A stretch of 64,000 nt of DNA from a virus. Taxonomy: Duplodnaviria > Heunggongvirae > Uroviricota > Caudoviricetes. The translations under genes and the position numbers were made by a program. The DNA lies in the IMG/VR virus record IMGVR_UViG_3300035188_001315; one strand, written 5' to 3'. Position 1 is the stretch's first letter; every line of letters begins with the position of its first letter. The notes below the pieces were generated by a model. The model was not told where the DNA came from and ran no database searches. It saw only the letters and a list, made by a program, of their open reading frames with translations. Below, in pieces: positions 3,221 through 23,055 of this stretch.

Positions 3221-3252
3221 AAAAGAAAGGAGACCTAAGTCTCCTTTCTTAG
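3221..3252. terminator. bidirectional hairpin terminator
   Basis: aaggagacctaagtctcctt perfect hairpin flanked by A-run and T-rich tail. Confidence 0.55.
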
Positions 3253-3602
3253 CAATTCTAAGCTAAATCATTTTTCAACAAATTAGATATTGCTTGTACT
3301 TCAATATTTACTACACCCAATACACCTAGTGCAGCCCACCCAAAAAATACAACATTATGTTCATATAAGGTCGTTACTCTTATACCGCTTGTTAAGCTGC
3401 TTATAGTTTCCTATAAGATCGGACTATATCTTTATCCATTTCTGGATACTACCCATTTCCACTTACTTAAGTGTACTCCCTTTCGGGATAGTCTCTGAAC
3501 CTTAAACTTATTACTAAGTTTCTTGGCTGCTGATTGTCCTTTCGGATGTCCCAGCAATTAAAGTAGTTTTCATTATATTATTACTAATATAAGGAGCCTG
3601 TA

Positions 3603-4268
3603 TTATTTTGACCCATAATGTAAAGGGGCTACAAATAACTCCTCCATAAACCAGAATGTGTGTCCCCATTCATTTAATCCAACGTTTGGAAGAATCATAA
3701 ATGGACCAATTACAGATACCATGTATTGTAATGGTAAACCTTGTTGATAGGTTGGCAATCTTGTTTTAGCATATAAAAATGCAGCAACACCTGTAATAAT
3801 GTAAATTGGATAACTTAAATAAAACTCAATAACATGACTTGGTGTAAAGTCAGTATCACGGACAATCGTTTGATGCCATGTACCATCTTGTTCTGTAAAG
3901 TATGATGCACCATAATAAATCGCAATACCATACATTACCAACCAAATCCAATGTGTGAAGTGTCGTCTCAATTCCTCACGAGGAGTAATTGACATTACTT
4001 TTCGATCACGTGTCTTCCAAATATAACCCCATAATACTGAAGCAGTAATTACTTCAAGTACCATTTCAATGTAAAGGAAATTCATCCAATACGTTTCAAA
4101 CTCCGGTGCAAATGAATCTAAGCCGGCTGACCAACCATAGACTCCTTCATACCAACGAACCCAACCATAAAATACAACGTATAACGCTGCACCTGCTAAC
4201 ATAGCTTTTTTGTTTAAAAGAGAAGATTCTTTTACTTCTGCTTTTACCATTTCTACTGTTGCTGACAT
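3603..4268 (-). CDS. pmoC: ammonia/particulate methane monooxygenase subunit C family protein (PmoC/AmoC-like), C-terminally short
   Basis: Translation carries the conserved blocks WVRWYEGVYGWSAGLDSFAPEFETYWMNF, WGYIWKTRDRK, SYFTEQDGTWHQTIVRDTDFTPSHV, MILPNVGLNEWGHTFWFMEELFVAPLHYG, diagnostic of PmoC/AmoC. AGGAGA RBS 7 nt before the MSATVEMV start. Ends right after PLHYG, so the last TM helix of bacterial homologues is missing. Confidence 0.85.
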   Translation of the reverse strand: MSATVEMVKAEVKESSLLNKKAMLAGAALYVVFYGWVRWYEGVYGWSAGLDSFAPEFETYWMNFLYIEMVLEVITASVLWGYIWKTRDRKVMSITPREELRRHFTHWIWLVMYGIAIYYGASYFTEQDGTWHQTIVRDTDFTPSHVIEFYLSYPIYIITGVAAFLYAKTRLPTYQQGLPLQYMVSVIGPFMILPNVGLNEWGHTFWFMEELFVAPLHYGSK

Positions 4269-4537
4269 GTTGTTTCTCCTAATCAAGGGAAAAAATATAA
4301 ACGTAGTGTACCAACACGGCACACTTCAACTTGAGTTAAAACAGTTTATAACAAACCTTAAAACTTAGTGTTTTACTCTGTTATTATAAACTGGGAGATA
4401 TTATACAAAAAAGTTTCAAAAACAAAATATTTTTAAAAAAAAAATTTAAAAAATGTTTCTGTCTATATTTTAAAGCAAAAAAAAATGTGTTCGTTAAACG
4501 CATTTTTTTCATAAGTATATGTTATTTAAATATTATA

Positions 4538-5482
4538 TTATAATTTTAAATCTGTAGCAGATAATACCGAAACACCTGTTAATTCAATAGAAATTTCTGG
4601 ATTGGCATCAGAATTTGTACTAGCATATAAGATACTAGCATCTTCATCAAACCATACCACACCCGTCGTTTGTGTTCCAGTTGGTGCTGTTGAAGACCAT
4701 ACGAAAGCACTATCAGTTTCAACACCATTATTATCCAAAGTACCTAAAAATGCATCAATTTTAGATAAATCAATTTTATCACCTTGAGAGTGATTGAAAT
4801 CAGTAATCACATCACGAGTAGTTGGTGTTACCCCAGAAGTAATGGCATTCGAAAATACAAAGGTATCAGCACCCAAACCACCAGTTAATTTATCTAATAA
4901 CATAGTGCTTGTTAATATATCATTAGCTGCAGATGTTCTTGTGCTATATGAAACGAATGAAGATGATGAACTTTCAGATTCTGCGTAACCTAATTTATCA
5001 GTATATGACACTTTTAAATTAATATAATTGTAACCAGAAGCATAATCAGAATCCTTTACTTTATAAGTTACCTTTGTACCCAAAACATCACCAGCAGCAT
5101 TTGTCCATTGATAATTCAATGTACCCAAACCATCAGCATCCTTCAAACTTGTTAATGCTGTTAATGTATTGCCCACATTAATTGCTCCATTAATAGATAC
5201 CTTCCCAGTATGTACGCGGTTAAAAATATGAAGGGCTGTAGATTCTACAGGTGTACCATCAGTGTTAACATATAATGCCTTTACGAAAACATCTGTTTTT
5301 AAATCAGCAGCAGTTAATATATAAGAAGGGTTAGTTGATAATGATTTAGTTGTACCATTTGATGTACTAAACCATTCATAAGTAAGATTATAAATACCGT
5401 TAGTATCTGAAAGTGTGCCAGGGACTACATTTACTGTACTCCCCGATGTGAGTTTACCAGTGATTTTTAATGTTCCAACCAT
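4538..5482 (-). CDS. secreted Ig-like repeat protein with type I secretion C-terminal target domain
   Basis: Two bacterial Ig-like repeats (GxLxYxW motifs). C-terminal GGLGADTFVF ... DVITDFNHSQGDKIDLSKIDAF matches the T1SS C-terminal target/RTX-like signature. GGAGAAA RBS upstream. Confidence 0.6.
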   Translation of the reverse strand: MVGTLKITGKLTSGSTVNVVPGTLSDTNGIYNLTYEWFSTSNGTTKSLSTNPSYILTAADLKTDVFVKALYVNTDGTPVESTALHIFNRVHTGKVSINGAINVGNTLTALTSLKDADGLGTLNYQWTNAAGDVLGTKVTYKVKDSDYASGYNYINLKVSYTDKLGYAESESSSSSFVSYSTRTSAANDILTSTMLLDKLTGGLGADTFVFSNAITSGVTPTTRDVITDFNHSQGDKIDLSKIDAFLGTLDNNGVETDSAFVWSSTAPTGTQTTGVVWFDEDASILYASTNSDANPEISIELTGVSVLSATDLKL

Positions 5483-5513
5483 TTAAGTTTCTCCATTTTT
5501 ATTAATTTAATTA

Positions 5514-5894
5514 CTATTGTGAATAAGTTTCCTCGAATGCTAATCGTATTAAAGCTTTTGTATTAGGAATAATACACTTATCAAATACTTTAACAGAAGC
5601 ACACATTTGATCACACACCACAGAAAAAAATTGATCTGCAAGACCAGCATATTCTCTGGGAATACGTTCAATCCAACTGGGAGTTGGAGATGCAATAAGT
5701 TTGGTTGCATAAAACAAACATTTTAATGAAATATCTTGTGCAACTTTCTCATATTGCTGTTTAGCAGAAGGATCCTTACTCTGTCTCATTTGTTTATAAA
5801 ATAAATCCCGAGAAACTATTTCATCTCGTAATTTCTCTAAATCAAATAAAAACTTTTCTGCATTTTTTAACAACAATTTATCAGAATCATTCAT
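5514..5894 (-). CDS. hypothetical protein (126 aa)
   Basis: ORF between response regulator and T1SS-substrate genes, same strand. Confidence 0.45.
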   Translation of the reverse strand: MNDSDKLLLKNAEKFLFDLEKLRDEIVSRDLFYKQMRQSKDPSAKQQYEKVAQDISLKCLFYATKLIASPTPSWIERIPREYAGLADQFFSVVCDQMCASVKVFDKCIIPNTKALIRLAFEETYSQ

Positions 5895-6088
5895 TTTTTA
5901 CACTTTATTATTTTTTCGAATATTTATTCTATCGAATATTTTTCAAATTTGATTTCAAATGATTACATCAAAAGTACACAAAATCAGTATCCCAATAACT
6001 TTGATCAACTGTATTTAGGAGGTGATTAACACTCAACAACAATTGATACAATTTTGATGTAACCAACACCATTTTTTCTGTAAAACGA

Positions 6089-6484
6089 TTATTTACCTTC
6101 AACAACCGGTTCTTTACTATCAAAAAACTGTTGTACAACGGTAATCAAATCTCTGGGACTAAATGGTTTAGTTTTAAAAAGATTTGCACCTGCTGCAAGT
6201 CCTTTTTGAATATCATATGTGTTACCAGATATTAATATTAAAGGACAAGCTGGATTAATTTCTTTAATCATACGACATAGTTCGACACCATCATATTCTC
6301 CTGACATCATAATATCAGTAAAAACTATATCTGGATCAATCTCTTGATATTTTGAAAATCCTTCTTCAGCATTTACTGCTTCAAATAGTTGTATGTTTGG
6401 TTGACGTTTGAATGTTAAGTACATTAAATCACGAATGTTTTCACAATCGTCAACTACTAACAATTTAATGGGTTTATGTTTCAT
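6089..6484 (-). CDS. single-domain response regulator (CheY-like receiver)
   Basis: LLVVDD acidic pocket, phospho-acceptor D in FTDIMM, conserved T and K (KTKPF). Start codon 2 nt after the kinase stop, i.e. translationally coupled. Confidence 0.8.
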   Translation of the reverse strand: MKHKPIKLLVVDDCENIRDLMYLTFKRQPNIQLFEAVNAEEGFSKYQEIDPDIVFTDIMMSGEYDGVELCRMIKEINPACPLILISGNTYDIQKGLAAGANLFKTKPFSPRDLITVVQQFFDSKEPVVEGK

Positions 6485-6486
6485 AA

Positions 6487-7653
6487 CTATTTCACCGGAA
6501 ATAATAACCTAAATGTCGTTCCACAATTTTCAGGGTTTGTGTTAGTATCAACTAATAGATGACCACCGGCATCGTGTACCATACCACATACCGTAGATAA
6601 ACCTAAACCTGTACCTTCACCAATAGGTTTAGTAGTATAAAATGGATCAAATATATGTTCCAGTATATCTACAGGTATACCTGTACCATTATCTTTTACT
6701 GACAACTCAATAAACTTACTAGGAACTATATGTGTTACACATGATGTACACAAAGTTGGTTCTAATAATACTATAGATTTCAATGAAAGAGTAATGGTAC
6801 CACCTGATTTCATAGAATCTCTAGCATTCACTACTAAATTAGTAATAATTTGATGTAAATCAGTTGAATCAATACGAATATCTAATCTCAAATCAGTATC
6901 AACTTCCAAATTAAATTTACTTGTTAATGCAGGTCCAATCATAGATACAACCTCACCGATAACATCGTGAGTTGCACGTATTTCAGATGGTGCATCTGGT
7001 GGACTATGTCTAGAATAAGCCAACATTTTTTTGATGAGATTTGATGCTCGTTTTGCGGCTTTTTGAATTTCTTCCGCATTATGTAATATCTCATCTTTAA
7101 TATCGCCACATTCACAATCCTCAACAACCATAGCAGTTATATCATTATAACCTACTACACAATTCAAAATATTGTTAAAATCGTGTGCAATACCTGCAGT
7201 TAATCGACTGAGACTTTCGATTTTTTGCATTTGATTTATTTGCTTATTAAGAGTTACTAATTTAACTTTGTTTTCTTCACGTTCAGAAATATCCTCAAAC
7301 TCAGCCATATAACCAAGACAATGATTATCATTATCTCTAATAGTGGTACATCGGATAAATACAATCATATCTGCAAATTTTAAAACTGAACTTAGACATT
7401 TACTCGATGATTCGAGTAAATGTCTAAGTTTTGAAGGATCTGGATAAATATCATCAACATTCTTCCCAATAAGGTTATGTATATCAAACCAGGGAAGTCT
7501 AGCTTTGATTATTGGTTCTGCACTTTTAAATATATTAATTGCACTTTTATTAACATAGACAATATTGCGATCAACATCAGTTATTATCACACCAGTAAAT
7601 AATTTGTCTAATCCTAACTTCAATTTTATCCCAGTTGATTTGGACTGTGGCAT
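6487..7653 (-). CDS. cytoplasmic PAS-domain sensor histidine kinase
   Basis: N-terminal PAS-like region. H-box AGIAHDFNNIL, N-box NLVVNARDS, G1 DNGTGIP, G2 GTGLGLS. No TM segments. Confidence 0.8.
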   Translation of the reverse strand: MPQSKSTGIKLKLGLDKLFTGVIITDVDRNIVYVNKSAINIFKSAEPIIKARLPWFDIHNLIGKNVDDIYPDPSKLRHLLESSSKCLSSVLKFADMIVFIRCTTIRDNDNHCLGYMAEFEDISEREENKVKLVTLNKQINQMQKIESLSRLTAGIAHDFNNILNCVVGYNDITAMVVEDCECGDIKDEILHNAEEIQKAAKRASNLIKKMLAYSRHSPPDAPSEIRATHDVIGEVVSMIGPALTSKFNLEVDTDLRLDIRIDSTDLHQIITNLVVNARDSMKSGGTITLSLKSIVLLEPTLCTSCVTHIVPSKFIELSVKDNGTGIPVDILEHIFDPFYTTKPIGEGTGLGLSTVCGMVHDAGGHLLVDTNTNPENCGTTFRLLFPVK

Positions 7654-7905
7654 AACGGTTCCTACAATGTTGGCATCAATGAATATCTACTATTATTTAT
7701 ATCGACAACAATAATATTATTTTAAGGATGGTTTAAACCAAGTGATGTCATACAATATTAAAAATTAACAGGTGAAGAAATTCATACTCTCGTATATCTC
7801 TCATTTCAACATGATTGAGTATTACTATCAATTATTTTTAGATATTATACATTAAATTTTAACCAAAGTAAATTTTTTTTAAAAAATCTAAAATAAGTAC
7901 AAATG

Positions 7906-8634
7906 TTACAATTTTTTAGATGTGTCGTTAAATTCATGAAACTCACAAAGTTTAATCAACTCGGTAGCGGTTTCATTATTAAACCCTAAGAATCTAACAA
8001 GAGTATCCATGTTTTGTCTTTCTAACCTACCCAATGATTCTCGCAATTCTAGTTGCTCTTTAGCTTTTAAAAAACGCCATTTGATATGGTTGTCTGATTC
8101 TGAAATACCAACTAAATATTTTTTAGCAATATTTTCATTTTTAGTCCAGTATTCATTCTCTTTGGAATCATTAAATTCTTCAATCTGCTTAGTTTCAAGA
8201 TTGTAAACTTTCTTCTTGAACTTTTGTAACTGTTTTTTCCAGGATTTAATTGCTCTCGGACTTTGCATTTCACCACCAAAAATATATTTAAAATGAGTTT
8301 TTGCCAAAATTATTTTAAATATAAATTCATACAAACCTATTTTTATTGATTCGGTTTTTTTAATTTCTTCAATTCTCTCTTTATTGACAAACGAAGTTGT
8401 GATGAACATTTTATCATTATCCAGTCTTTTGTATTCCACATGACCTAGATATTCATTTTCCTTATCAGTTAGATAAAAAACATCATGTCCTGAATAAATT
8501 TTACAACCCAGTAACTCAATATCAGTTGAGCACAGTTCTAGTTTTTTAAATTCCGCATTAAAATCCATCTGCATAGAATTACCACCATAGTTATCAGTAA
8601 TCAACGCCATTTCTTGTAGTTGTTTTAGATTCAT
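7906..8634 (-). CDS. hypothetical protein
   Basis: ORF; second ATG chosen because of AAGGA RBS. Confidence 0.45.
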   Translation of the reverse strand: MNLKQLQEMALITDNYGGNSMQMDFNAEFKKLELCSTDIELLGCKIYSGHDVFYLTDKENEYLGHVEYKRLDNDKMFITTSFVNKERIEEIKKTESIKIGLYEFIFKIILAKTHFKYIFGGEMQSPRAIKSWKKQLQKFKKKVYNLETKQIEEFNDSKENEYWTKNENIAKKYLVGISESDNHIKWRFLKAKEQLELRESLGRLERQNMDTLVRFLGFNNETATELIKLCEFHEFNDTSKKL

Positions 8635-8671
8635 ATTTTTTCCTTTCAATTGCATTTTACATTTCTTTAGG

Positions 8672-8706
8672 AAAAAAAAATACCCACTTTTGGTGGGTAT
8701 TTTTAT
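8672..8706. terminator. bidirectional rho-independent terminator
   Basis: acccacttttggtgggt hairpin flanked by A9 and T5 runs. Confidence 0.6.
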
Positions 8707-8895: not shown

Positions 8896-9174
8896 TTATT
8901 TAGTCATTCTACTTTTAAATACCACATCCAATTTTGAATTTGTTTCTTCCGCAAATTTAGCTGCACGGTTTGCAGCTTCTTCAGCAGCTGTTGCCCGTGT
9001 TGTTGCTTCATTAGCCAATGCTTGAGCACTTTGTGCATCATGTGATGCATGTTCAACAGAAACTTTCAAATTGTCAATTTGTGATTGCAATTTCGTTACG
9101 TCACTTGTACTTGCACAACCAACAATAACTGAGGTAAATAAAAAAACTACTGCAACTTTACTTAACATTTTCAT
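8896..9174 (-). CDS. lpp-like: Braun lipoprotein (Lpp)-like small lipoprotein
   Basis: Signal peptide with lipobox IVGC. Ala-rich heptad coiled coil resembling Lpp. C-terminal Lys (the peptidoglycan-attachment position in Lpp). AGGAG RBS. Embedded in tRNA cluster. Confidence 0.6.
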   Translation of the reverse strand: MKMLSKVAVVFLFTSVIVGCASTSDVTKLQSQIDNLKVSVEHASHDAQSAQALANEATTRATAAEEAANRAAKFAEETNSKLDVVFKSRMTK

Positions 9175-9200
9175 AATAAACTCCTATATTTCAACTACGT

Positions 9201-9279
9201 ATTTGGAGCAGGACTTGGATAGATTTGAACTATCACTTTTGGAGTGGAACTCCAATGTTCTACCATTAAACTACACCTG
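9201..9279 (-). tRNA. tRNA-like element with Gly (UCC) anticodon arm, copy A, non-canonical
   Basis: D arm, anticodon arm TTGGA-GTTCCAC-TCCAA and T arm GATAG-TTCAAAT-CTATC are fine. Three extra nt lie between T stem and acceptor, with 2 acceptor mismatches. Identical copy at 10336-10414. Confidence 0.35.
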
Positions 9280-9361
9280 CATATTATACTATTTTATGAC
9301 ATCGGTGAATCAATCACTAAACGGTGATGCCATATATTAAAAACCTTACAGGTTTGTTATT

Positions 9362-9437
9362 TGGCTGGCTAGGTAGGGCTCGAACCTACGACAGAGTGAT
9401 TAACAGTCACTTGATCTACCAACTGATCTACTAGCCA
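9362..9437 (-). tRNA. tRNA-Asn (GUU), copy A
   Basis: Clean cloverleaf: acceptor TGGCTAG/CTAGCCA, anticodon arm AGTGA-CTGTTAA-TCACT, T arm GTAGG-TTCGAGC-CCTAC, encoded CCA. Identical copy at 11039-11114. Confidence 0.75.
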
Positions 9438-9627
9438 ATATTTTTAAAGGAGATACTTAACGATCCCACTTTTATTTATAATAATTATACAACATTTTTT
9501 TGTCAATTTAAAAACAAATTCAAAAATCTAAAAAGAGAGATTTAACCACTGTTCCTTTCACAATCCAATTATACAAGAAAAATTTGTGAAAGGAATATTA
9601 TAAAAAAGAAATCAAAATCATTAGAAA

Positions 9628-9664
9628 AAAAATCCTAACAAAATCAATTTGTTAGGATTTCTAT
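9628..9664 (-). terminator. rho-independent terminator for leftward tRNA operon
   Basis: atcctaacaaa/tttgttaggat hairpin followed by U-run on minus strand. Confidence 0.55.
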
Positions 9665-9669
9665 GTTTT

Positions 9670-9741
9670 AGCTCCATTCCGGAATCGAACCGAATTATCA
9701 TGATTACAAGTCAAGTGCATCGCCACTTATGCTTATGGAGC
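9670..9741 (-). tRNA. tRNA-Thr (UGU)
   Basis: Acceptor GCTCCAT/ATGGAGC, D stem GCAT/ATGC, anticodon loop CTTGTAA (one U-U mismatch in stem), T arm TTCGG-TTCGATT-CCGGA. Confidence 0.55.
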
Positions 9742-9746
9742 GTATT

Positions 9747-9821
9747 TGGTCAGAAGTGAGAGAATCGAACTCCCTTAATCTAGTTCCCAAAACTAGCGGA
9801 CAACCAATGTCCCAACCTCTG
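9747..9821 (-). tRNA. tRNA-Pro (UGG)
   Basis: Acceptor CAGAGGT/ACTTCTG (one G-U), anticodon arm CTAGT-TTTGGGA-ACTAG, T arm GGGAG-TTCGATT-CTCTC, CCA encoded. Confidence 0.65.
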
Positions 9822-9837
9822 AAATATATGGAGCAGG

Positions 9838-9975
9838 TAAGTTGGATTTGTACCAACATTTTACTATCAATCTACATCTGCACCATTCTAAATTTAATTT
9901 TCTCCTAGTTACGAACCACCGACTCGGTGATTAAAATAGTCAATTGCTCTACCAAACTGAACTAATAAGAGAAAA
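9838..9975 (-). pseudogene. two degenerate tRNA-like remnants
   Basis: Segments with recognisable D-arm (AGTTCAGTTTGGTAGAGC) and T-loop-like motifs, plus a tggagcagg start resembling the Gly-like repeat. No closable acceptor or anticodon stems. Confidence 0.3.
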
Positions 9976-10006
9976 TGATCTGGAAACCCTGATCAGTAAT
10001 AATATT

Positions 10007-10291
10007 TGGCATCCTCTAGTGGATTCGAACCACTGACCTACGGCTTAGCTTACCACTATAGTTTTCACTACCACATAAGTGTTTGTGGTCTGGACTTTCT
10101 CTTTACCATATCCTCTGAATTGGACTTAGGTAGTTGCCATTAAGTCTCTACACGTTCCCATTACTGGGCTTCGCTCGGGATTGACATTTTACAGTTTTCC
10201 CCGAATTTGACAACTTACATTCATAATGTTTCCACTATGACGCTCCAATGTATTCAAAGGCCGTTGCTCTATCCAGCTGAGCTAAGAGGAC
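10007..10291 (-). tRNA. tRNA-Arg (UCU) interrupted by a group I intron in the anticodon loop
   Basis: 5 prime half GTCCTCTTAGCTCAGCTGGATAGAGCAACGGCCTT and 3 prime half CTAAGCCGTAGGTCAGTGGTTCGAATCCACTAGAGGATGCCA assemble into a canonical cloverleaf with loop CUUCUAA. The two halves are separated by 208 nt. Confidence 0.7.
10049..10256 (-). ncRNA. ORF-less group I intron (Azoarcus/cyanobacterial tRNA-intron type) between anticodon positions 34 and 35
   Basis: Intron RNA contains GUUGUCAAAUUCGGGGAAAAC (P3-P4 core) and GUGUAGAGACUUAAUGGCAACUACCUAAGUC (P7 region), closely resembling the Azoarcus pre-tRNA-Ile intron. 5 prime exon ends in U; intron ends in G. Confidence 0.65.
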
Positions 10292-10335
10292 AAATTTTTA
10301 CCATTTAAAAAATTAATTTTATTTACACTTATTTG

Positions 10336-10414
10336 GAGCAGGACTTGGATAGATTTGAACTATCACTTTTGGAGTGGAACTCCAACGTTCTACCATTAAA
10401 CTACACCTGCATTA
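10336..10414 (-). tRNA. tRNA-like element with Gly (UCC) anticodon arm, copy B
   Basis: Near-identical to 9201-9279 (one substitution). Confidence 0.35.
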
Positions 10415-10484
10415 TTCCATTTATTCACAAAATGTATTATACAATAATATTTTGTAATAATTCATTTTTTTATAATTACTATTT

Positions 10485-10560
10485 TGGGGTAATTACTGAG
10501 AATTGAACTCAGATCATGTGAATCACAATCACATATGTTAACCATTACACCATAATTACC
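10485..10560 (-). tRNA. tRNA-His (GUG) with encoded G-1
   Basis: Acceptor GTAATTA/TAATTAC plus extra 5 prime G opposite C73. Anticodon arm TGTGA-TTGTGAT-TCACA, T arm CTGAG-TTCAATT-CTCAG, CCA encoded. Confidence 0.7.
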
Positions 10561-10953
10561 ATTGTTTGGTGGACCTGGCGAGTTCTGCCCCTCGCGTCCA
10601 TAAATAACCACACTTAAAGTACTACACGTTTATTTCAATTTTATTTTTCATTTCTTAACAAAAATGAACAAAATGTTAAAAAATATATTCCGTAACTTTA
10701 GTTTGAATTCTATTTCCAGAATGTATAGAATTCTATCTTGTGTCCATGACACCCAAACGATAATCAGATTATCTCTATTCGCACAAGCACAAATAGTTGA
10801 GTGGGTAGATAGGGTGTTTAAGCCGCTACTGCTACCTGGTAGTAAGAGTCATTTGCAATTACTTTAAATTTGGATCGTTTAAAGAGAACTCCACCTCTAC
10901 GTGCACTTCAAAGCTTCATCATCTATGTCGATTCTGATTCAAGCCCTAAATTT

Positions 10954-11030
10954 TGGTAGCGGATGCAGGATTCGAACCTACGATTCTTGGCTTATGAGAC
11001 CAAGCGGATGACCACTTCCATAACCCACAT
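10954..11030 (-). pseudogene. tRNA-Met (CAU)-like element with non-pairing acceptor ends
   Basis: Good T arm GTAGG-TTCGAAT-CCTGC and anticodon arm TTGGT-CTCATAA-GCCAA. The 5 prime segment repeats ATCCGCT instead of complementing it. Confidence 0.3.
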
Positions 11031-11038
11031 TTTTTATT

Positions 11039-11114
11039 TGGCTGGCTAGGTAGGGCTCGAACCTACGACAGAGTGATTAACAGTCACTTGATCTACCAAC
11101 TGATCTACTAGCCA
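11039..11114 (-). tRNA. tRNA-Asn (GUU), copy B
   Basis: Identical to 9362-9437 including about 12 bp of each flank. Confidence 0.75.
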
Positions 11115-11164
11115 ATATTTTTAAAGTTTAAATTAAAAATTTTCATTAGTTAAAAACATTTAAT

Positions 11165-11450
11165 TTAAACACCTAAAAATAACATTATACAATAAAAAAT
11201 TTCATTTATCAAGATTTTTTAAAAAATATTTTTTTCATCACTTCTTAAAAATAACATTATACAATAAAAAATTTCATTTATCAAGATTTTTTAAAAAATA
11301 TTTTTTTCATCACTTCTTAAAAATAACATTATACAATAAAAAATTTCATTTATCAAGATTTTTTAAAAAAATATTTTTTTCATCAATTCTTAAAAATAAC
11401 ATTATACAATAAAAAATTGCATTTATCAAGATTTTTTAAAAAAAAGGGGA
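11165..11450 (-). repeat. four tandem ~72-bp repeats, each carrying a consensus sigma70 promoter directed leftward into the tRNA cluster
   Basis: Each unit on the minus strand reads cTTGATAaatgaaattttttattgTATAATg (TTGATA-17-TATAAT) with an A/T-rich UP-like tract. Copies start at about 11181, 11253, 11325, 11398. Confidence 0.6.
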
Positions 11451-11650
11451 TTATGTTTGTATAACCCCTTGTCATAGAAAAATAGTTTAGTATCTTCATA
11501 GTTTTTTGTAAAAACTCAGACGCATTTGAAAACGAACCATATTCCTTGTAAGAATAGTCGTATTATCAGTTCCTTGTAAGAAGTGATTTTCTAATTATTT
11601 AATTTTTTAGCCGTCATTTTTATTTATGTCAATAAAAATTATTTTTTTGT

Positions 11651-11887
11651 TTAAAATGAATTTGGTTTAGCAACTGATCTCGTGATTGCCATTAATCCTT
11701 TTTGTAAATCAGTTTTTCCTACAGTTAACCACCAAGTATCAGTAGTTTCAATGGATTCCAATTTTTCAATCAGATTACCCAATTTTTCGCCAATATCCTT
11801 AATTTCATTTATTGCAGAAACTTCTTCTTCAGTTAAGTTTCTGTATCCTTTGATTTTTTGTTTTTCTTCTGTCATCATAATCTCCAA
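11651..11887 (-). CDS. hypothetical protein (78 aa)
   Basis: ORF, acidic, upstream of 295-aa gene on same strand. Confidence 0.4.
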   Translation of the reverse strand: MEIMMTEEKQKIKGYRNLTEEEVSAINEIKDIGEKLGNLIEKLESIETTDTWWLTVGKTDLQKGLMAITRSVAKPNSF

Positions 11888-11896
11888 ATTGAGTTG

Positions 11897-12784
11897 TCAA
11901 TATTTAATTAATGGTTTTACAGTACCAGAGGTAACTCTTTCCAAAAATATATTATCATATTTTACATTACCAATACTAATAATCTTGCCTCTATGGGATT
12001 TACAAACTTTATGATTAAAAAAAATCACATTATGATCAGAAAAATAATCTGCAACATGTTTCCGATATTCATTCTCAATAACTTGAAATTGCAAATCAGT
12101 TCGTACCGAATTAATAATCGATCCTGGAATCTCATTTGTTTCTATTTTACATAATTTTTTTAATCGCAAGATTGTTTCATTTAAGGAAACAGTACCACCC
12201 AACTTAAAATCAGATAAACACGACCCTAAAATTTTGTGTTGGGTAGGTTTTACCGCCTTTACTTCAAAATTCCCATGTTTGGAAATTATATCTACACTAC
12301 TCGAGGAACCACCACCTAAAACTACATCATCTACTAAAAAATATATCACTAATTCCCCAGGACCAATACCAGGGATTACATAAGAATACAATGAATTAAA
12401 CCCATCAAAACTAATAGTTTTTAATGTTTCTATTTTTTTGTTTAATGTATCCAATGACATATCATCACAAAATAATGAGTAGTTTGATTTTAAATCATCA
12501 AACGGTTGATTAAACCACATATCCGAAATAACATTTCGGATTTCATCTTTGTAATCGAGAGAAGTCAAATCCTTAGTAGTAACATACAATGTTTTTTTAT
12601 GATTGTGATTATATAATCCAAGATCAGTTATCAAATTTTCAAACTTATATCTCAACATTGGTGGTAAACTAGTATAGTCACCACCATTATCACGATCTTT
12701 CAAAATTTTAAACCTTTCTAATTTTTCATTCAATGAATCAAATAGAGAATTAAATTCAGCAAATTCATCTTGTACAAACACCAT
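11897..12784 (-). CDS. hypothetical protein, possible PD-(D/E)xK nuclease fold
   Basis: Motif GPGELVIYFLVDD ... SVDIISKHGNFEVKAVK fits a D ... ExK catalytic signature. Weak. Confidence 0.45.
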   Translation of the reverse strand: MVFVQDEFAEFNSLFDSLNEKLERFKILKDRDNGGDYTSLPPMLRYKFENLITDLGLYNHNHKKTLYVTTKDLTSLDYKDEIRNVISDMWFNQPFDDLKSNYSLFCDDMSLDTLNKKIETLKTISFDGFNSLYSYVIPGIGPGELVIYFLVDDVVLGGGSSSSVDIISKHGNFEVKAVKPTQHKILGSCLSDFKLGGTVSLNETILRLKKLCKIETNEIPGSIINSVRTDLQFQVIENEYRKHVADYFSDHNVIFFNHKVCKSHRGKIISIGNVKYDNIFLERVTSGTVKPLIKY

Positions 12785-12858
12785 AACTTTCCTAATAACT
12801 ACAACAATTTAAAATCATTGCAGTTATTTTACCATAACAAAAATTAAAAGTCAAGAGA

Positions 12859-13995
12859 TTATTCAAACAATTCATAAGAAATAGTATCAAATCCTTCACT
12901 GTACATTGGTAAAGTAAAAGTGGTCATCATATCAAGCATAACCTGTCTGGAAATTCTTTTACCCGTTTCCATTTCTCGATTTTCTGAATGCTCCATAAGT
13001 TTATCAAATCCTTTCAAAAATAAAATACAATGTTTTTTATAATTTGAAGGAAATGTGTTTATCCATGATCTACGTCTTTTTTTGCTCATCATAGTCATAT
13101 CAACCAACACAGACTTGTTATGTTGTTTTGCATCCAGTGTCAAAGATTCAATGAGATTAGAAACCTCATTTTTTTCTATCTCTTTGTTTTCATTCAAAAA
13201 ATTGAAAGCTTCATTATAACCAGAAAGATTATATTTTACAACCACTTGTTCAACCAAATCATCTCGACTAATAACTACCATACCAGGATGTGATAACAAA
13301 ATTTTTTCCCGTTCAGTAGATTTACCACTACAAGGTGGTCCACATAAAATAATCAGTTGTGGATTATCATCAATTTGCATAATTGGAGTATTATCAACAA
13401 GTTGATCAACAACATTTTTTACATTATCAAACGCTACATTTGAAATTGCAGAAGCAGTACCTTCTTTCCAAAATCTACCAGCTGCATCAGCTTTTACTTG
13501 ATATAAGAGATGATGTAATAAGGTTTTTTCATTTTTAAATGTTTCAAGCAACTCATATTTTACACTACCATCCGATTTAATGAAATTAAACAAACTACCA
13601 TGTAAGGCAATAATTTTGAAAATCAAAACTTTATCATCCACCGATAAAGAGCTTTTGTTCATCACATCTAATGATAAGAAAGCACTGATTCCTTCATGAC
13701 CGATGAAATTAACTCGTTGTTTTTCCTCATTAACTTTTCTAGCTAATGGTTTTCCAATATCATGCAACAATGTAGACCATCGGACATAACCATTTTCAGG
13801 TACAAAATTTTGTGCTTGTAAACACACCATCATAGTATGAGTGAATATAGATCCCTCAATATGATACGGATTTATTGTGGTTTCATCATAATGATGAGTC
13901 GATGCACACATTGTTTTTACCAAATGTGGAAATTCTACCTGAAACCATGAAACTAAATCACTGGTACTCGTTGTCAAATCTATTGTATCTGGCAT
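12859..13995 (-). CDS. HD phosphohydrolase domain fused to P-loop kinase domain (polynucleotide kinase/phosphatase-like, RNA repair candidate)
   Basis: N-terminal H ... HD motif (HIEGSIFTHT ... LLHDIGKP). C-terminal Walker A GPPCSGKST. Confidence 0.6.
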   Translation of the reverse strand: MPDTIDLTTSTSDLVSWFQVEFPHLVKTMCASTHHYDETTINPYHIEGSIFTHTMMVCLQAQNFVPENGYVRWSTLLHDIGKPLARKVNEEKQRVNFIGHEGISAFLSLDVMNKSSLSVDDKVLIFKIIALHGSLFNFIKSDGSVKYELLETFKNEKTLLHHLLYQVKADAAGRFWKEGTASAISNVAFDNVKNVVDQLVDNTPIMQIDDNPQLIILCGPPCSGKSTEREKILLSHPGMVVISRDDLVEQVVVKYNLSGYNEAFNFLNENKEIEKNEVSNLIESLTLDAKQHNKSVLVDMTMMSKKRRRSWINTFPSNYKKHCILFLKGFDKLMEHSENREMETGKRISRQVMLDMMTTFTLPMYSEGFDTISYELFE

Positions 13996-20997: not shown

Positions 20998-23055
20998 TTA
21001 ATTAACTGGTTTACCTGAATTGCCTGAGACTGGCCCTGCAAGTGAATCTAAGTATTCTCCTTCTGGGTGTTTGTGAGTACCAACATTTAATCCATTTATC
21101 AGTAATTTTCCACCTTTAACAGATACTCCCCCTGGAGTTATTGAAACCGATACTCCCCCAACTTTTAAAAGAATTTCAGATGCAGCTTTTAAAATAATAG
21201 TATCCCCCGCATTATATTCAATATTCAAATCTGCATTACCATATATATTTTTTGTTGTAATGGCAGAAATATTATCTCCTGCGGTAATATCAACGTAACC
21301 ACCTGCAGTAAACGACATATCAATATCTGCTTTTTCCACTATATTTTTCTTTGCATGCATTTTTATATTTTCAACAGCTTTAAGATCTATATCAATACCA
21401 GCTTTCATAAGAATATATTCAACTGCCTCTAATTCAATATTAACCCCGGCTTTAATAATTTTTGTTTTGGGTGCAATATCTTCCACATTACCTTTTGGTG
21501 GCACAGCTGCTAATAATGCTGCTTTTTTTTCATCTTCAATTTTTTGAATTTCATCTTCTTTATCTTTTTTAGCTTTTTTTATGTCCTCTTCTTTCTTTTT
21601 CTTAGCCTGTTTTAGTTTATCTTCTTTGGATTTCTTAACTTCTTCTTCTTTTGCAGTAACAGCCAATTTCAATTTAGTAATTTCATTTTGAGTATCTAAT
21701 TTAACTTTTTTTTCTAATGCCGCAACAGCATCATCAAATTCCTTTTTCTTTTTTTCTTCAGGACTTAATGCCGCCTCTGCTTCTTTTTTTGCAGTCACAA
21801 TTTCTACAATCTTGGCCTTCATTTCATCAGATAATTCAATATCTGGTTCTTCAGGACTTAATGCCTTTTTTAAGGCGTCATTTTCTGCTATTACAATTTC
21901 TTCTATAGTGATTTTTGTACTATCTAATAAATCTAAATCTTCTTCAATTCCAGTAACATTTTCGACTGGTTTATTAATAAATGATAATGAATCGTTACCG
22001 ACTAAATCCTGTATTACCAAAGTATCATTATTTTCAGTTTTATCATTGTAACTTACGGTTATGATTTCACCAATTTCAACAGGGGTTGTTAATAGTAAGG
22101 TAACTGTTTTTTTAGCAGAATTTACTCTTAAATCCTTGACCGTATATCCAGGTACTGAAAATAAACTCACTTTTGGTAAATTTGCATCATCTAAATGATG
22201 AACATCGGTAAAGGCGATTGTTAATTTTGTACCATTAACGGAGGCACTAGAAAAAATAGGAGATATAATATCGGGTTTTATTTCATCTAATGCAAGAAGT
22301 TCTGCATTTGCAATAGTAACAATTTCCTCATCCGTCGCCAACTTTATAAGTTCAGCTTCTTTTTCTTCTGCTATTTTTACTGCTCTATCTGCAGAATCAA
22401 TAATATTGTCGATTTCATCCTTTTTAGCTTTTTCTATTGCTGCAAGTGCATCCTCTAAATCTTTTTTAGCCTTTTCTTCCGCTAATTTCTTCGCTAACTC
22501 AGCATCCATATTTGCACGTTCTATTGCAGCTGCTAACTCGGCTAACCTATTGATTTCATCCTGTTTATCTTTTCGTTTTTGAACTGCCTCAGCTAAAATG
22601 TCATTAACTAATTTTTTTAATACAAATTGATGTGCAGTTTTTGGACAGTATTTCCACATAACAGATGTACCATGAACACCACATTTGGATGTGATTGGGC
22701 ATTTTTCACTGTCTTTATAACTCGATTCAGGAATTACAGGTATAAGTATTGGTTTTTTAACAGGAACTGGATTTTTAACTTCTGGTATAACGGGATTATT
22801 CGCTTTATCAATTATACTTTGTATAAGTGCTGTTTTTTGGTAAGCTAATAATTTTTCTTGTTGTTCTTTGTTTTTTAAGGCTTCTTGTAGTGCTAATTCT
22901 TCAGCGGAAATAGTTAATTTTTGTTGTGCTGCAATAAGTTCCTTTTCTAAGGTTTCTTTATCTTTTTTTTCTTTTGCAATACGAATGATGTCGTCGACAG
23001 TTAGTTTTGCAACTTTTATTTCCTCTTTATGATTTGTGTGATTATTTACAGTCAT
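20998..23055 (-). CDS. coiled-coil protein with C-terminal beta-helix and HxH apex motif (central spike/needle-like)
   Basis: About 450 aa Glu/Lys-rich coiled coil. C-terminal repeats (VGGVSVSITPGGVSVKGGKLLINGLNVG) ending in THKHPEG. An HxH apex is known in iron-loaded P2 gpV / phi92 gp138-type spikes. Confidence 0.4.
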   Translation of the reverse strand: MTVNNHTNHKEEIKVAKLTVDDIIRIAKEKKDKETLEKELIAAQQKLTISAEELALQEALKNKEQQEKLLAYQKTALIQSIIDKANNPVIPEVKNPVPVKKPILIPVIPESSYKDSEKCPITSKCGVHGTSVMWKYCPKTAHQFVLKKLVNDILAEAVQKRKDKQDEINRLAELAAAIERANMDAELAKKLAEEKAKKDLEDALAAIEKAKKDEIDNIIDSADRAVKIAEEKEAELIKLATDEEIVTIANAELLALDEIKPDIISPIFSSASVNGTKLTIAFTDVHHLDDANLPKVSLFSVPGYTVKDLRVNSAKKTVTLLLTTPVEIGEIITVSYNDKTENNDTLVIQDLVGNDSLSFINKPVENVTGIEEDLDLLDSTKITIEEIVIAENDALKKALSPEEPDIELSDEMKAKIVEIVTAKKEAEAALSPEEKKKKEFDDAVAALEKKVKLDTQNEITKLKLAVTAKEEEVKKSKEDKLKQAKKKKEEDIKKAKKDKEDEIQKIEDEKKAALLAAVPPKGNVEDIAPKTKIIKAGVNIELEAVEYILMKAGIDIDLKAVENIKMHAKKNIVEKADIDMSFTAGGYVDITAGDNISAITTKNIYGNADLNIEYNAGDTIILKAASEILLKVGGVSVSITPGGVSVKGGKLLINGLNVGTHKHPEGEYLDSLAGPVSGNSGKPVN

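Follow-up and report, generated by a model that had tools for sequence, protein, structure and literature searches.

A kinase-receiver pair, an Ig/RTX protein and an intron-split pmoC as probable separate cassettes in a predicted jumbo phage of methanotrophs

The IMG/VR virus record IMGVR_UViG_3300035188_001315 carries, within the 64,000-nucleotide stretch analysed here (hereafter, the window), a pmoC gene preceded on the same strand by genes for a histidine kinase (HK), a receiver (RR), a 126-aa protein (unk126) and a 314-aa protein with immunoglobulin (Ig)-like repeats and an RTX-type C-terminus (the Ig/RTX protein). A preliminary description of this DNA had located the four open reading frames (ORFs) upstream of pmoC as we find them, all on the minus strand (Table 1), and had interpreted the five genes as one operon in which the two-component system regulates the deployment of pmoC. 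All the window genes discussed here from the kinase to pmoC are on the minus strand, and their coordinates are those of the 64-kb window. We consider it probable that these genes form separately evolving cassettes arranged head-to-tail on the minus strand rather than one operon, with a kinase pair that probably manipulates host signalling. The first cassette would comprise HK and RR, the second unk126 and the Ig/RTX gene, and the third an autonomous pmoC.

Table 1. Features from the end of the tRNA/tmRNA array to the terminator of pmoC, listed in the direction of transcription of the minus strand.
Feature	Position	Strand	Remarks
Terminator, bidirectional	8676-8704		After the tRNA/tmRNA array; terminator scan
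249-aa ORF	7906-8655		Without family match
252-nt gap			Between the 249-aa ORF and the kinase gene
Sigma-70-like promoter candidate	7844-7872	(-)	TTTACT-17-TATAAT; 10/12 consensus matches in scan
Kinase (HK)	6487-7653	(-)
2-nt gap			HK to RR; TAG-TT-ATG
Receiver (RR)	6089-6484	(-)
194-nt gap	5895-6088	(-)	RR to unk126; two promoter-like sites and direct repeat
unk126	5514-5894	(-)	126 aa
31-nt gap			unk126 to Ig/RTX gene
Ig/RTX protein gene	4538-5482	(-)	314 aa
269-nt gap			Ig/RTX gene to pmoC
Weak A/U-rich hairpin	4479-4509	(-)	After the Ig/RTX gene; A- and U-tract flanks; possible weak terminator
pmoC promoter candidate, -10 region	4397-4407	(-)	TGTATAATATC; alignment with relatives
Structured pmoC 5′ leader	4269-4396	(-)	Fold z -3.86
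pmoC	3258-4268	(-)	Two exons and intron
pmoC exon 1	3611-4268	(-)	Codons 1-219 + 1 nt; AmoC 374 bits
Group I intron	3353-3610	(-)	258 nt, no ORF; Rfam RF00028
pmoC exon 2	3258-3352	(-)	Residues 220-250 and stop
Strong intrinsic terminator	3223-3250	(-)	Ends the pmoC unit

A single operon running from HK to pmoC found no support beyond the same-strand order of the genes, as pmoC has a promoter candidate and a leader of its own, gaps of 194 and 269 nt interrupt the series, and the gene order is not conserved. Promoter-like sites are present in both of these gaps, and no strong internal terminator was found. The -10 region of the pmoC promoter candidate aligns with the sequence TTGAC(T/A)-17-TATAAT upstream of pmoC in five other phage loci (L001, L005, L010, L011 and L012), in which the upstream genes differ. 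The leader that follows, of approximately 130 nt, is conserved across phages, with compensatory changes in its first hairpin (5 pairs), and it includes a hairpin at 4305-4325, then a U-run and then the ribosome-binding site (RBS) AGGAG. The conservation of promoter and leader under differing upstream genes suggests that pmoC travels as a self-contained unit. At its 3′ end, exon 2 is followed by a terminator with a 12-bp stem and a U8 tract (-18.2 kcal/mol, z -4.57); thus, the proposal that pmoC is a terminal gene holds as far as the terminator is concerned, and the operon that it was to terminate is not supported. The same layout of promoter, leader and hairpin before the RBS is found in host pmoC. 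A host origin of the phage leader was nevertheless rejected, since the leader has no sequence similarity to the leaders of 80 bacterial loci and the layout is only analogous.

The comparison with other viral pmoC loci leads in the same direction. The flanks of 80 IMG/VR pmoC loci share almost nothing with the window despite a PmoC identity of 90-95%, and HK, RR and unk126 are within 10 kb of pmoC in none of the 80 other viral loci, so that the gene order is not a property of related phages. Additionally, RR is devoid of a DNA-binding domain, and direct transcriptional control of pmoC is therefore not available to it. The regulated deployment of pmoC by the two-component system, which had been suggested from the gene order, is not sustained by a receiver of this kind or by a two-component system that is absent near other viral pmoC genes. 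As a separate observation, the 372-kb contig L005 has different accessory genes around the same pmoC cassette, with ClpP, UvdE and a Bax1-inhibitor-like membrane protein in the flanks (9100-9681, 12446-13150).

The pmoC gene itself had been read in the preliminary description as an ORF at 3603-4322, which is exon 1 alone with a wrong start, and the intron that splits the gene had been missed. The true start is the ATG at 4268, which is conserved with its RBS in all relatives. Without splicing, the ORF stops after …APLHYGSK, and the missing C-terminus (FVFFGWAALGVLGVV…) is located 258 nt further downstream. The sequence in between matches the group I intron model RF00028 over its full length (model positions 1-253; 86.4 bits vs a gathering score of 50; E 1.3e-20), with junctions …GGGU/CAAA… and …AAUG/UUGU…, with U as the last nucleotide of the 5′ exon and G as that of the intron. 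The exon-exon junction after splicing, …CATTATGGGT/TTGTATTTTTTGG…, is colinear base for base with the intron-less phage alleles and with bacterial pmoC. The spliced product, of 250 aa, is colinear with residues 1-250 of bacterial PmoC and is up to 92% identical to that of Methylococcales, the matches being metagenome-assembled genomes of Methylobacter, Methylomonas and Methylovulum; this identity agrees with the gammaproteobacterial host that had been proposed. Based on these comparisons, splicing is predicted to restore full-length PmoC.

The intron is absent from all 80 bacterial pmoC loci compared. Among the 80 IMG/VR pmoC loci, L001 and L003 have an intron that is 100% identical and inserted at the same site, with exons that differ, while L004 to L011 are intron-less. 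Alleles of 94-95% identity also lack the intron. An identical intron in differing exons suggests a recent movement of the intron, without an endonuclease ORF. Related introns were found elsewhere in pmoC, after residue ~205 in L012-L015 (~10616-10864) and after residue ~45 in L042 (~10130-10382), and L039 (10631-11149) and L040 (1572-2607, 8697-8880) have several introns at two or more sites, including one after residue ~210; overall, related introns occupy at least four pmoC sites across phages. Deposited phages, namely Bacillus, Staphylococcus, Vibrio and crAss-like phages, match the region through the intron alone. In four phages, Chen et al. described in 2020 a pmoC "fragmented into two pieces", between which lies a non-coding spacer with weak transcription (PMC7674155). 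A group I intron is the most likely explanation of that fragmented pmoC. Introns go unmentioned in their paper and its supplements (PMC7674155), and no paper linking group I introns with pmoC was found in the literature searched.

Domain searches supported the preliminary assignments of the kinase, the receiver and the type I secretion system (T1SS) target domain. The kinase matches HATPase_c (74.6 bits) and HisKA (30.2 bits; Pfam cut-off 26.9), and its PAS_9 match, of 25.1 bits, is slightly under the Pfam cut-off of 27; the alignment to Aer2 PAS structures given below (E 2.4e-11) confirms the PAS domain. The H-box histidine, H157 in AHDFNNIL, is invariant across an alignment of 13 sequences, and the boxes of the CA domain are intact, i.e., N276 (NARD), G1 (DNGTG, 321), F (FDPF, 335) and G2 (GTGLGL, 347). 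With these domains, all boxes present and no transmembrane or hydrophobic segment in the sequence, the gene was rightly described as encoding a soluble PAS kinase. Its core is nearest to the CckA type in NCBIfam, with 188 bits vs an equivalog cut-off of 1000 bits, and the closest solved structure to this core is that of CckA (5idj, E 7e-33).

Kinases of this family recur, with 53-56% identity, in three phage-like contigs (L083, L084 and L085). The closest ones, with 53-54% identity and the same architecture of ~390 aa, are encoded on contigs of 148 and 154 kb, with no adjacent receiver and in a phage-like context of RNR, helicase phrog_2488 and dense hypothetical genes. The bacterial homologues have extra N-terminal modules, such as BLUF, REC, HAMP, a second PAS or 7TM-DISM. 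The rarity of such kinases in phages, as claimed in the preliminary description, was borne out: of the 50,697 phage records deposited, 18 gave an HK-like match of any kind; none of these matches reached 30% identity, and many of the 18 are probably bacterial fragments. The PHROGs database includes kinase and receiver families without annotation. An IMG/VR scan with the kinase as query found nothing, a metagenome scan with the kinase alignment returned mostly generic H-box matches, with close loci numbering only 6 of 80, and literature searches on phage-encoded two-component systems returned nothing specific.

The N-terminal region of the kinase, residues 9-126, aligns along its full length to the PAS domain of Aer2 (3vol, E 2.4e-11; 4hi4, E 1.8e-10; 6ceq, E 1e-7), and its sequence suggests descent from Aer2-type haem O2 sensors. 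A conserved E-eta His holds the haem in the Aer2 PAS, an I-beta Trp holds O2 and a DxT motif relays the signal (PMC10107281). The E-eta His is kept in 44 of the 46 kinase homologues covering the site, and the phage copy has Tyr70 at this position, aligned to the His of FHKNP in Aer2. The position of the I-beta Trp (Trp of VQWTD in Aer2) is Phe119 in the phage kinase and is variable in the homologues (V17, F10, W9, I7), while that of the DxT relay is D121-I-S123 (DIS), with DxT in 35 of the 46 homologues. Given the loss of the haem-ligating His, the phage kinase is probably blind to the original signal, or re-tuned. Oxygen or redox state, which had been suggested as the cue, is thus apt for the family, but the phage copy, with Tyr70, may not sense O2.

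The receiver is a stand-alone, CheY-like Response_reg domain (71.2 bits) with no other domain, and the residues of the acidic pocket, the phospho-accepting Asp and the conserved Ser and Lys are present (D12, D13, D57, S86 and K106-P107); an output via protein-protein contacts, as had been proposed, fits a protein of this composition. HK and RR are co-oriented, with the ATG of RR beginning 2 nt past the HK stop, and both are probably transcribed together from the promoter-like site upstream of the kinase. This site contains the 11-mer TGTATAATATC, which occurs exactly twice in the 64 kb (7841-7851 and 4397-4407), each time after a T/A-rich tract, and which may define a shared promoter class. 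The only close relative of RR, P0229 (65% identity), is encoded immediately after a PAS kinase of 530 aa, the two genes overlapping by 4 nt, on a phage-like contig that also encodes Cpn10, a rotamase, DUF2828 (phrog_850) and a phosphoesterase. The backbone DUF2828…AAA_33-phosphoesterase is common to the P0229 contig and the pmoC phage L005, in which an Ig/RTX homologue and pmoC are located; therefore, these phages appear to share a variable accessory region where HK-RR, Ig/RTX and pmoC come and go.

A stand-alone receiver also follows the kinase in the three bacterial homologues whose context was examined, all on low-GC bacterial contigs. Identity to the phage RR reaches 52% in the best bacterial receiver (L176) and is 26-33% in the others, including those beside the BLUF kinase and P0022. 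Judging from these sequences, the HK-RR pair looks like a long-resident, sensor-stripped derivative of a host system made of a kinase and a stand-alone receiver. Two narrower origins were considered. RR as the detached C-terminal receiver of a hybrid kinase was rejected, since the receiver of the REC-containing homologues is N-terminal and only 23-33% identical to RR, and joint capture with one specific host receiver is plausible but unproven, with neighbouring receivers at 26-33% and the best one at 52%.

The unk126 protein has no Pfam, NCBIfam or PHROG match and is a near-ORFan, with four relatives among 1.84 billion representative proteins. AlphaFold2 (AF2) predicted a four-helix bundle, with one of five models confident, and no significant fold match was found for the model. 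Its identification as an Hpt protein was rejected, since the sequence has no histidine and the fold search gave no significant match. In the gap between RR and unk126, a direct repeat of AAATATTCGA (5916-5925 and 5932-5941, minus strand, 16-nt spacing) overlaps the promoter-like sites, and no terminator was detected; the repeat was also considered as a wider element, but it is confined to this gap and shows no enrichment in the rest of the window.

The Ig/RTX protein matches the T1SS C-terminal target domain TIGR03661 at residues 224-306 (21.3 bits vs a cut-off of 17.6). Its alignment shows two Ig-like repeats of ~90 aa followed by a C-terminal domain that is conserved across the family, and in the family alignment its last residues (…TGV..L…D..L-COOH) are conserved in the same register as those of bacterial RTX proteins. 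A single degenerate RTX nonapeptide is present (LTGGLGADTF); Pfam HemolysinCabind is not matched here, and longer homologues have PF00353. The AF2 model (pLDDT 88) led in Foldseek to the C-terminal domain of AprA, PrtC and serralysin, which serves Ca binding and secretion, and to tandem Ig/FnIII domains. The T1SS-type C-terminal domain named in the preliminary description is thus upheld by both the TIGR03661 match and the serralysin-type fold. Homologues of the protein have RTX and serralysin-C domains, the bacterial ones including RTX proteins of Methylovulum, and homologues are present in other jumbo pmoC-phage contigs, in which the form of ~300 aa is conserved; no match was found in the 50,697 deposited phage genomes. 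Among ~45 window ORFs scanned, including the two largest (623 and 685 aa), none matched the ABC or MFP component of a T1SS, the scan being non-exhaustive. Based on its sequence and predicted fold, the protein is most likely exported by a T1SS of the host.

The window kinase is encoded exactly on a 227,833-bp ENA contig, and ~13 contigs from several samples hold the same gene block. We consider it probable, to the same degree as for the cassettes, that this region belongs to a variable portion, rich in accessory genes, of the genome of a T4-like jumbo phage of ~228 kb whose hosts are Methylococcales methanotrophs of lakes. PHROG matches in the window include the RIIB lysis inhibitor, several RNA ligases, a PNK-like protein, a replication initiator and Sir2, and the window has at least eight tRNAs, a tmRNA and two group I introns. 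Its G+C (GC) content is ~30%, vs ~38-40% around host pmoC, and that of the HK region (30.5%) equals the phage average. Capsid, terminase and tail-sheath genes were not identified within the 64-kb window.

Under the arrangement that we favour, i.e., separate cassettes, the kinase would autophosphorylate on H157 and then transfer the phosphate to D57 of the phage receiver, which would act, through contacts with proteins or as a sink for phosphate, on a pathway normally driven by homologous host kinases. The HDFNN motif in HisKA kinases is also compatible with phosphatase activity. The pair would in this way inject a phage-controlled signal into a host pathway, while pmoC would be expressed alone from its own promoter, with an RNA that self-splices and a terminator that ends the unit. 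A more specific role, which we find unlikely though worth stating, is that methanotroph phages have a dedicated kinase-receiver pair derived from Aer2-like O2-sensing kinases of the host, and that the window kinase, its haem ligand being lost, signals regardless of oxygen and spoofs the oxygen-status pathway of the host during infection. This could keep the cell in a metabolic state, e.g., one of sustained O2-dependent methane oxidation with the phage pmoC, and fuel replication at the oxic-anoxic interface.

Several observations weigh against separate cassettes or against the role assigned to the kinase pair. There is no strong terminator between 8676 and 3250, where just the weak hairpin before the pmoC promoter was found (-8.9 kcal/mol and z -2.06 for an 83-nt segment, uncalled by the terminator scan), and with this hairpin alone, read-through into pmoC is possible. 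The presence of TGTATAATATC upstream of both the kinase and pmoC would fit co-regulation. The genome has a GC content of 30%, the promoters were called by consensus, and such matches are no commoner than in shuffled sequence (34 found vs 37 expected); the use of these promoters is thus a prediction. The label of L084 as phage-like rests on weak grounds. Host receivers share only 26-52% identity with the phage RR, and the pair may therefore be isolated from host partners instead of engaging in cross-talk. Tyrosine can ligate haem in other proteins, and the loss of sensing is thus unproven. Finally, the C-terminal pmoC fragment of phage LR_6 has lower expression (PMC7674155), so that splicing may be of limited efficiency.

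The one-operon alternative, in which the two-component system senses an intracellular cue and times the deployment of pmoC, draws on the first of these points, as the five genes share a strand with strong terminators only at 8676-8704 and 3223-3250 and the same -10 motif precedes HK and pmoC, and also on a PAS family of the O2-sensor type together with the need of pMMO for O2. Nevertheless, the promoter and leader of pmoC are conserved in phages lacking the two-component system, none of the 80 other pmoC loci has such a system nearby, and HK and HK-RR are found in other phages without pmoC; the receiver lacks a DNA-binding domain, promoter-like sites lie in the 194-nt and 269-nt gaps, and the haem ligand is lost in the window kinase. 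We therefore judge the operon improbable. To a slightly greater degree, we doubt that HK-RR is recently captured host DNA without a phage function, i.e., decaying cargo. Close bacterial homologues do have the same layout of kinase and stand-alone receiver, and the phage kinase has lost both the N-terminal sensor modules and the conserved haem His. However, the catalytic motifs of HK and RR are all intact, the GC content is fully ameliorated to the 30% of the phage, and the same block is unchanged in ~13 contigs from different samples. Moreover, a second phage lineage retains the pair with 55-65% identity, and two further lineages retain the kinase, which indicates long residence under selection.

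The remaining alternatives concern the Ig/RTX protein and the nature of the contig. That the protein belongs to the virion, for example as a Hoc-like capsid decoration or as part of a fibre, with a beta-roll that is structural and no secretion by a host T1SS, is suggested by fold matches that include Hoc of phage RB49 (3shs) and the lambda central tail fibre (8xci_Z), by the conservation of the ~300-aa form across several jumbo phage contigs and by the lack of T1SS ABC/MFP genes among the window ORFs scanned. This is a possibility that we take seriously but hold less probable than secretion, because the gene lies among accessory, non-structural genes, the C-terminal domains of genuine T1SS substrates give the best fold matches, matches to Ig/FnIII domains are generic, the target-domain hidden Markov model (HMM) scores above its cut-off, and the extreme C-terminus is in register with bacterial RTX proteins. 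That the contig is a host island or plasmid, with ordinary bacterial two-component and RTX genes, is very improbable: the missing capsid, terminase and tail-sheath genes would fit it, but the PHROG or Pfam matches to RIIB, several RNA ligases, PNK-like, Sir2 and Acb2/Tad1-like proteins, the tRNA array with tmRNA, the phage-type group I introns, the GC content of ~30% vs ~38-40% around host pmoC, the IMG/VR viral genomes found as relatives and the absence of pmoA or pmoB beside pmoC all speak for a virus.

Other features of the window were recorded upstream of the kinase. The gene coordinates of the ENA contig L081 are offset by 144 nt from those of the window within the tRNA array (~9200-11900), which indicates that an indel in this array separates the window from the 227,833-bp contig. 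The array includes a full-length tmRNA gene (124 bits; 10567-10946, minus strand) and a second group I intron (Rfam 75.6 bits; ~10058-10265, in the region ~10014-10300, minus strand) that splits the anticodon loop of a tRNA; when 208 nt are excised following the U…G splice rule, ARAGORN recognises a tRNA-Arg(UCU) of 77 nt. Two tRNA-like Rfam matches of ~50 bits each, at 9210-9280 and 10340-10410 (both minus strand), were uncalled by ARAGORN. Between tRNA genes, at 8896-9174 (minus strand), a 92-aa alanine-zipper outer-membrane lipoprotein of the Lpp/OprI type is encoded (NF040598, 81.5 bits), i.e., a host-envelope-type protein encoded by a phage. A small protein at 11651-11887 (minus strand) has an Acb2/Tad1-hairpin Pfam match and a match to phrog_717; it is possibly an anti-CBASS or anti-Thoeris sponge. 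The 685-aa protein at 20998-23055 (minus strand) has SWM_repeat and a weak match to DUF2345, a domain that occurs in VgrG spike proteins, so it could be a structural or spike protein; the adjoining 623-aa ORF has no match at all.

The phages that carry pmoC are thought to boost lake methane oxidation, and a "fragmented" pmoC reads as a damaged gene. If the break is a self-splicing intron, the fragmented pmoC is probably intact and functional, and counts of functional viral pmoC need revising. With introns at four or more sites of one auxiliary metabolic gene, pmoC also offers a natural system for the study of intron mobility in uncultured phages. Phages very rarely encode a complete kinase-receiver pair, and a recurring pair derived from oxygen-sensing host kinases with the sensor parts stripped points to a possible viral override of host environmental sensing. 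The link between HK-RR and pmoC, which was the core of the original claim, is not supported. A phage auxiliary gene, a phage group I intron, a two-component system and an RTX-type protein are each of a known kind. What appears to be new is the recurring phage lineage of an Aer2-derived kinase with a receiver, the loss of the haem ligand in the window kinase, the phage family of small T1SS-tagged Ig proteins and the intron account of the fragmented phage pmoC.

Among known systems, the CckA-type HisKA kinases with single-domain receivers (DivK, CpdR, CheY-like) share with the phage pair the AHDFNN H-box, the DHp-CA core and a receiver-only partner. Unlike CckA, the phage kinase has no transmembrane segment, C-terminal receiver or Hpt partner, scores 188 of the 1000 bits of the equivalog cut-off and is phage-encoded. 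The PAS domain of Aer2 (P. aeruginosa, 3vol and 4hi4; V. cholerae, 6ceq) aligns along its full length, and most family members keep the DxT motif, whereas the phage kinase has Tyr70, Phe119 and DIS, and its output is a histidine kinase, not a chemoreceptor. The C-terminal ~140 residues of the Ig/RTX protein resemble serralysin and TIGR03661 substrates (AprA, PrtC, RTX adhesins) in fold (30% identity) and HMM match; the phage protein differs from them in having one degenerate GGxGxD repeat, no protease or large adhesin body and a length of 314 aa, and in being phage-encoded.

Group I introns of phages are known from td, nrdB and sunY of T4 and from psbA of cyanophage S-PM2, psbA being a host-derived metabolic gene. 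As in those cases, the intron of the window is a short group I intron in a conserved, highly expressed gene and is polymorphic between close relatives. It differs from them in that the host gene is pmoC, no homing-endonuclease ORF is present in its 258 nt, and at least four pmoC sites are occupied. The reported pmoC-phages resemble the window phage: they are large freshwater phages of low GC content that encode numerous tRNAs, and their pmoC stands alone and shares ~90% identity with the gene of gammaproteobacterial methanotrophs. Their pmoC region varies between close relatives, and in some of them pmoC is fragmented (PMC7674155). Introns, promoters, two-component systems and RTX proteins are unmentioned in that paper, and a CckA-like kinase appears once in its supplementary table, for a single phage and uncommented (PMC7674155). 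In the window phage, by contrast with the published description, a group I intron accounts for the break in pmoC, and a full HK-RR pair is located 1.9 kb upstream of the gene.

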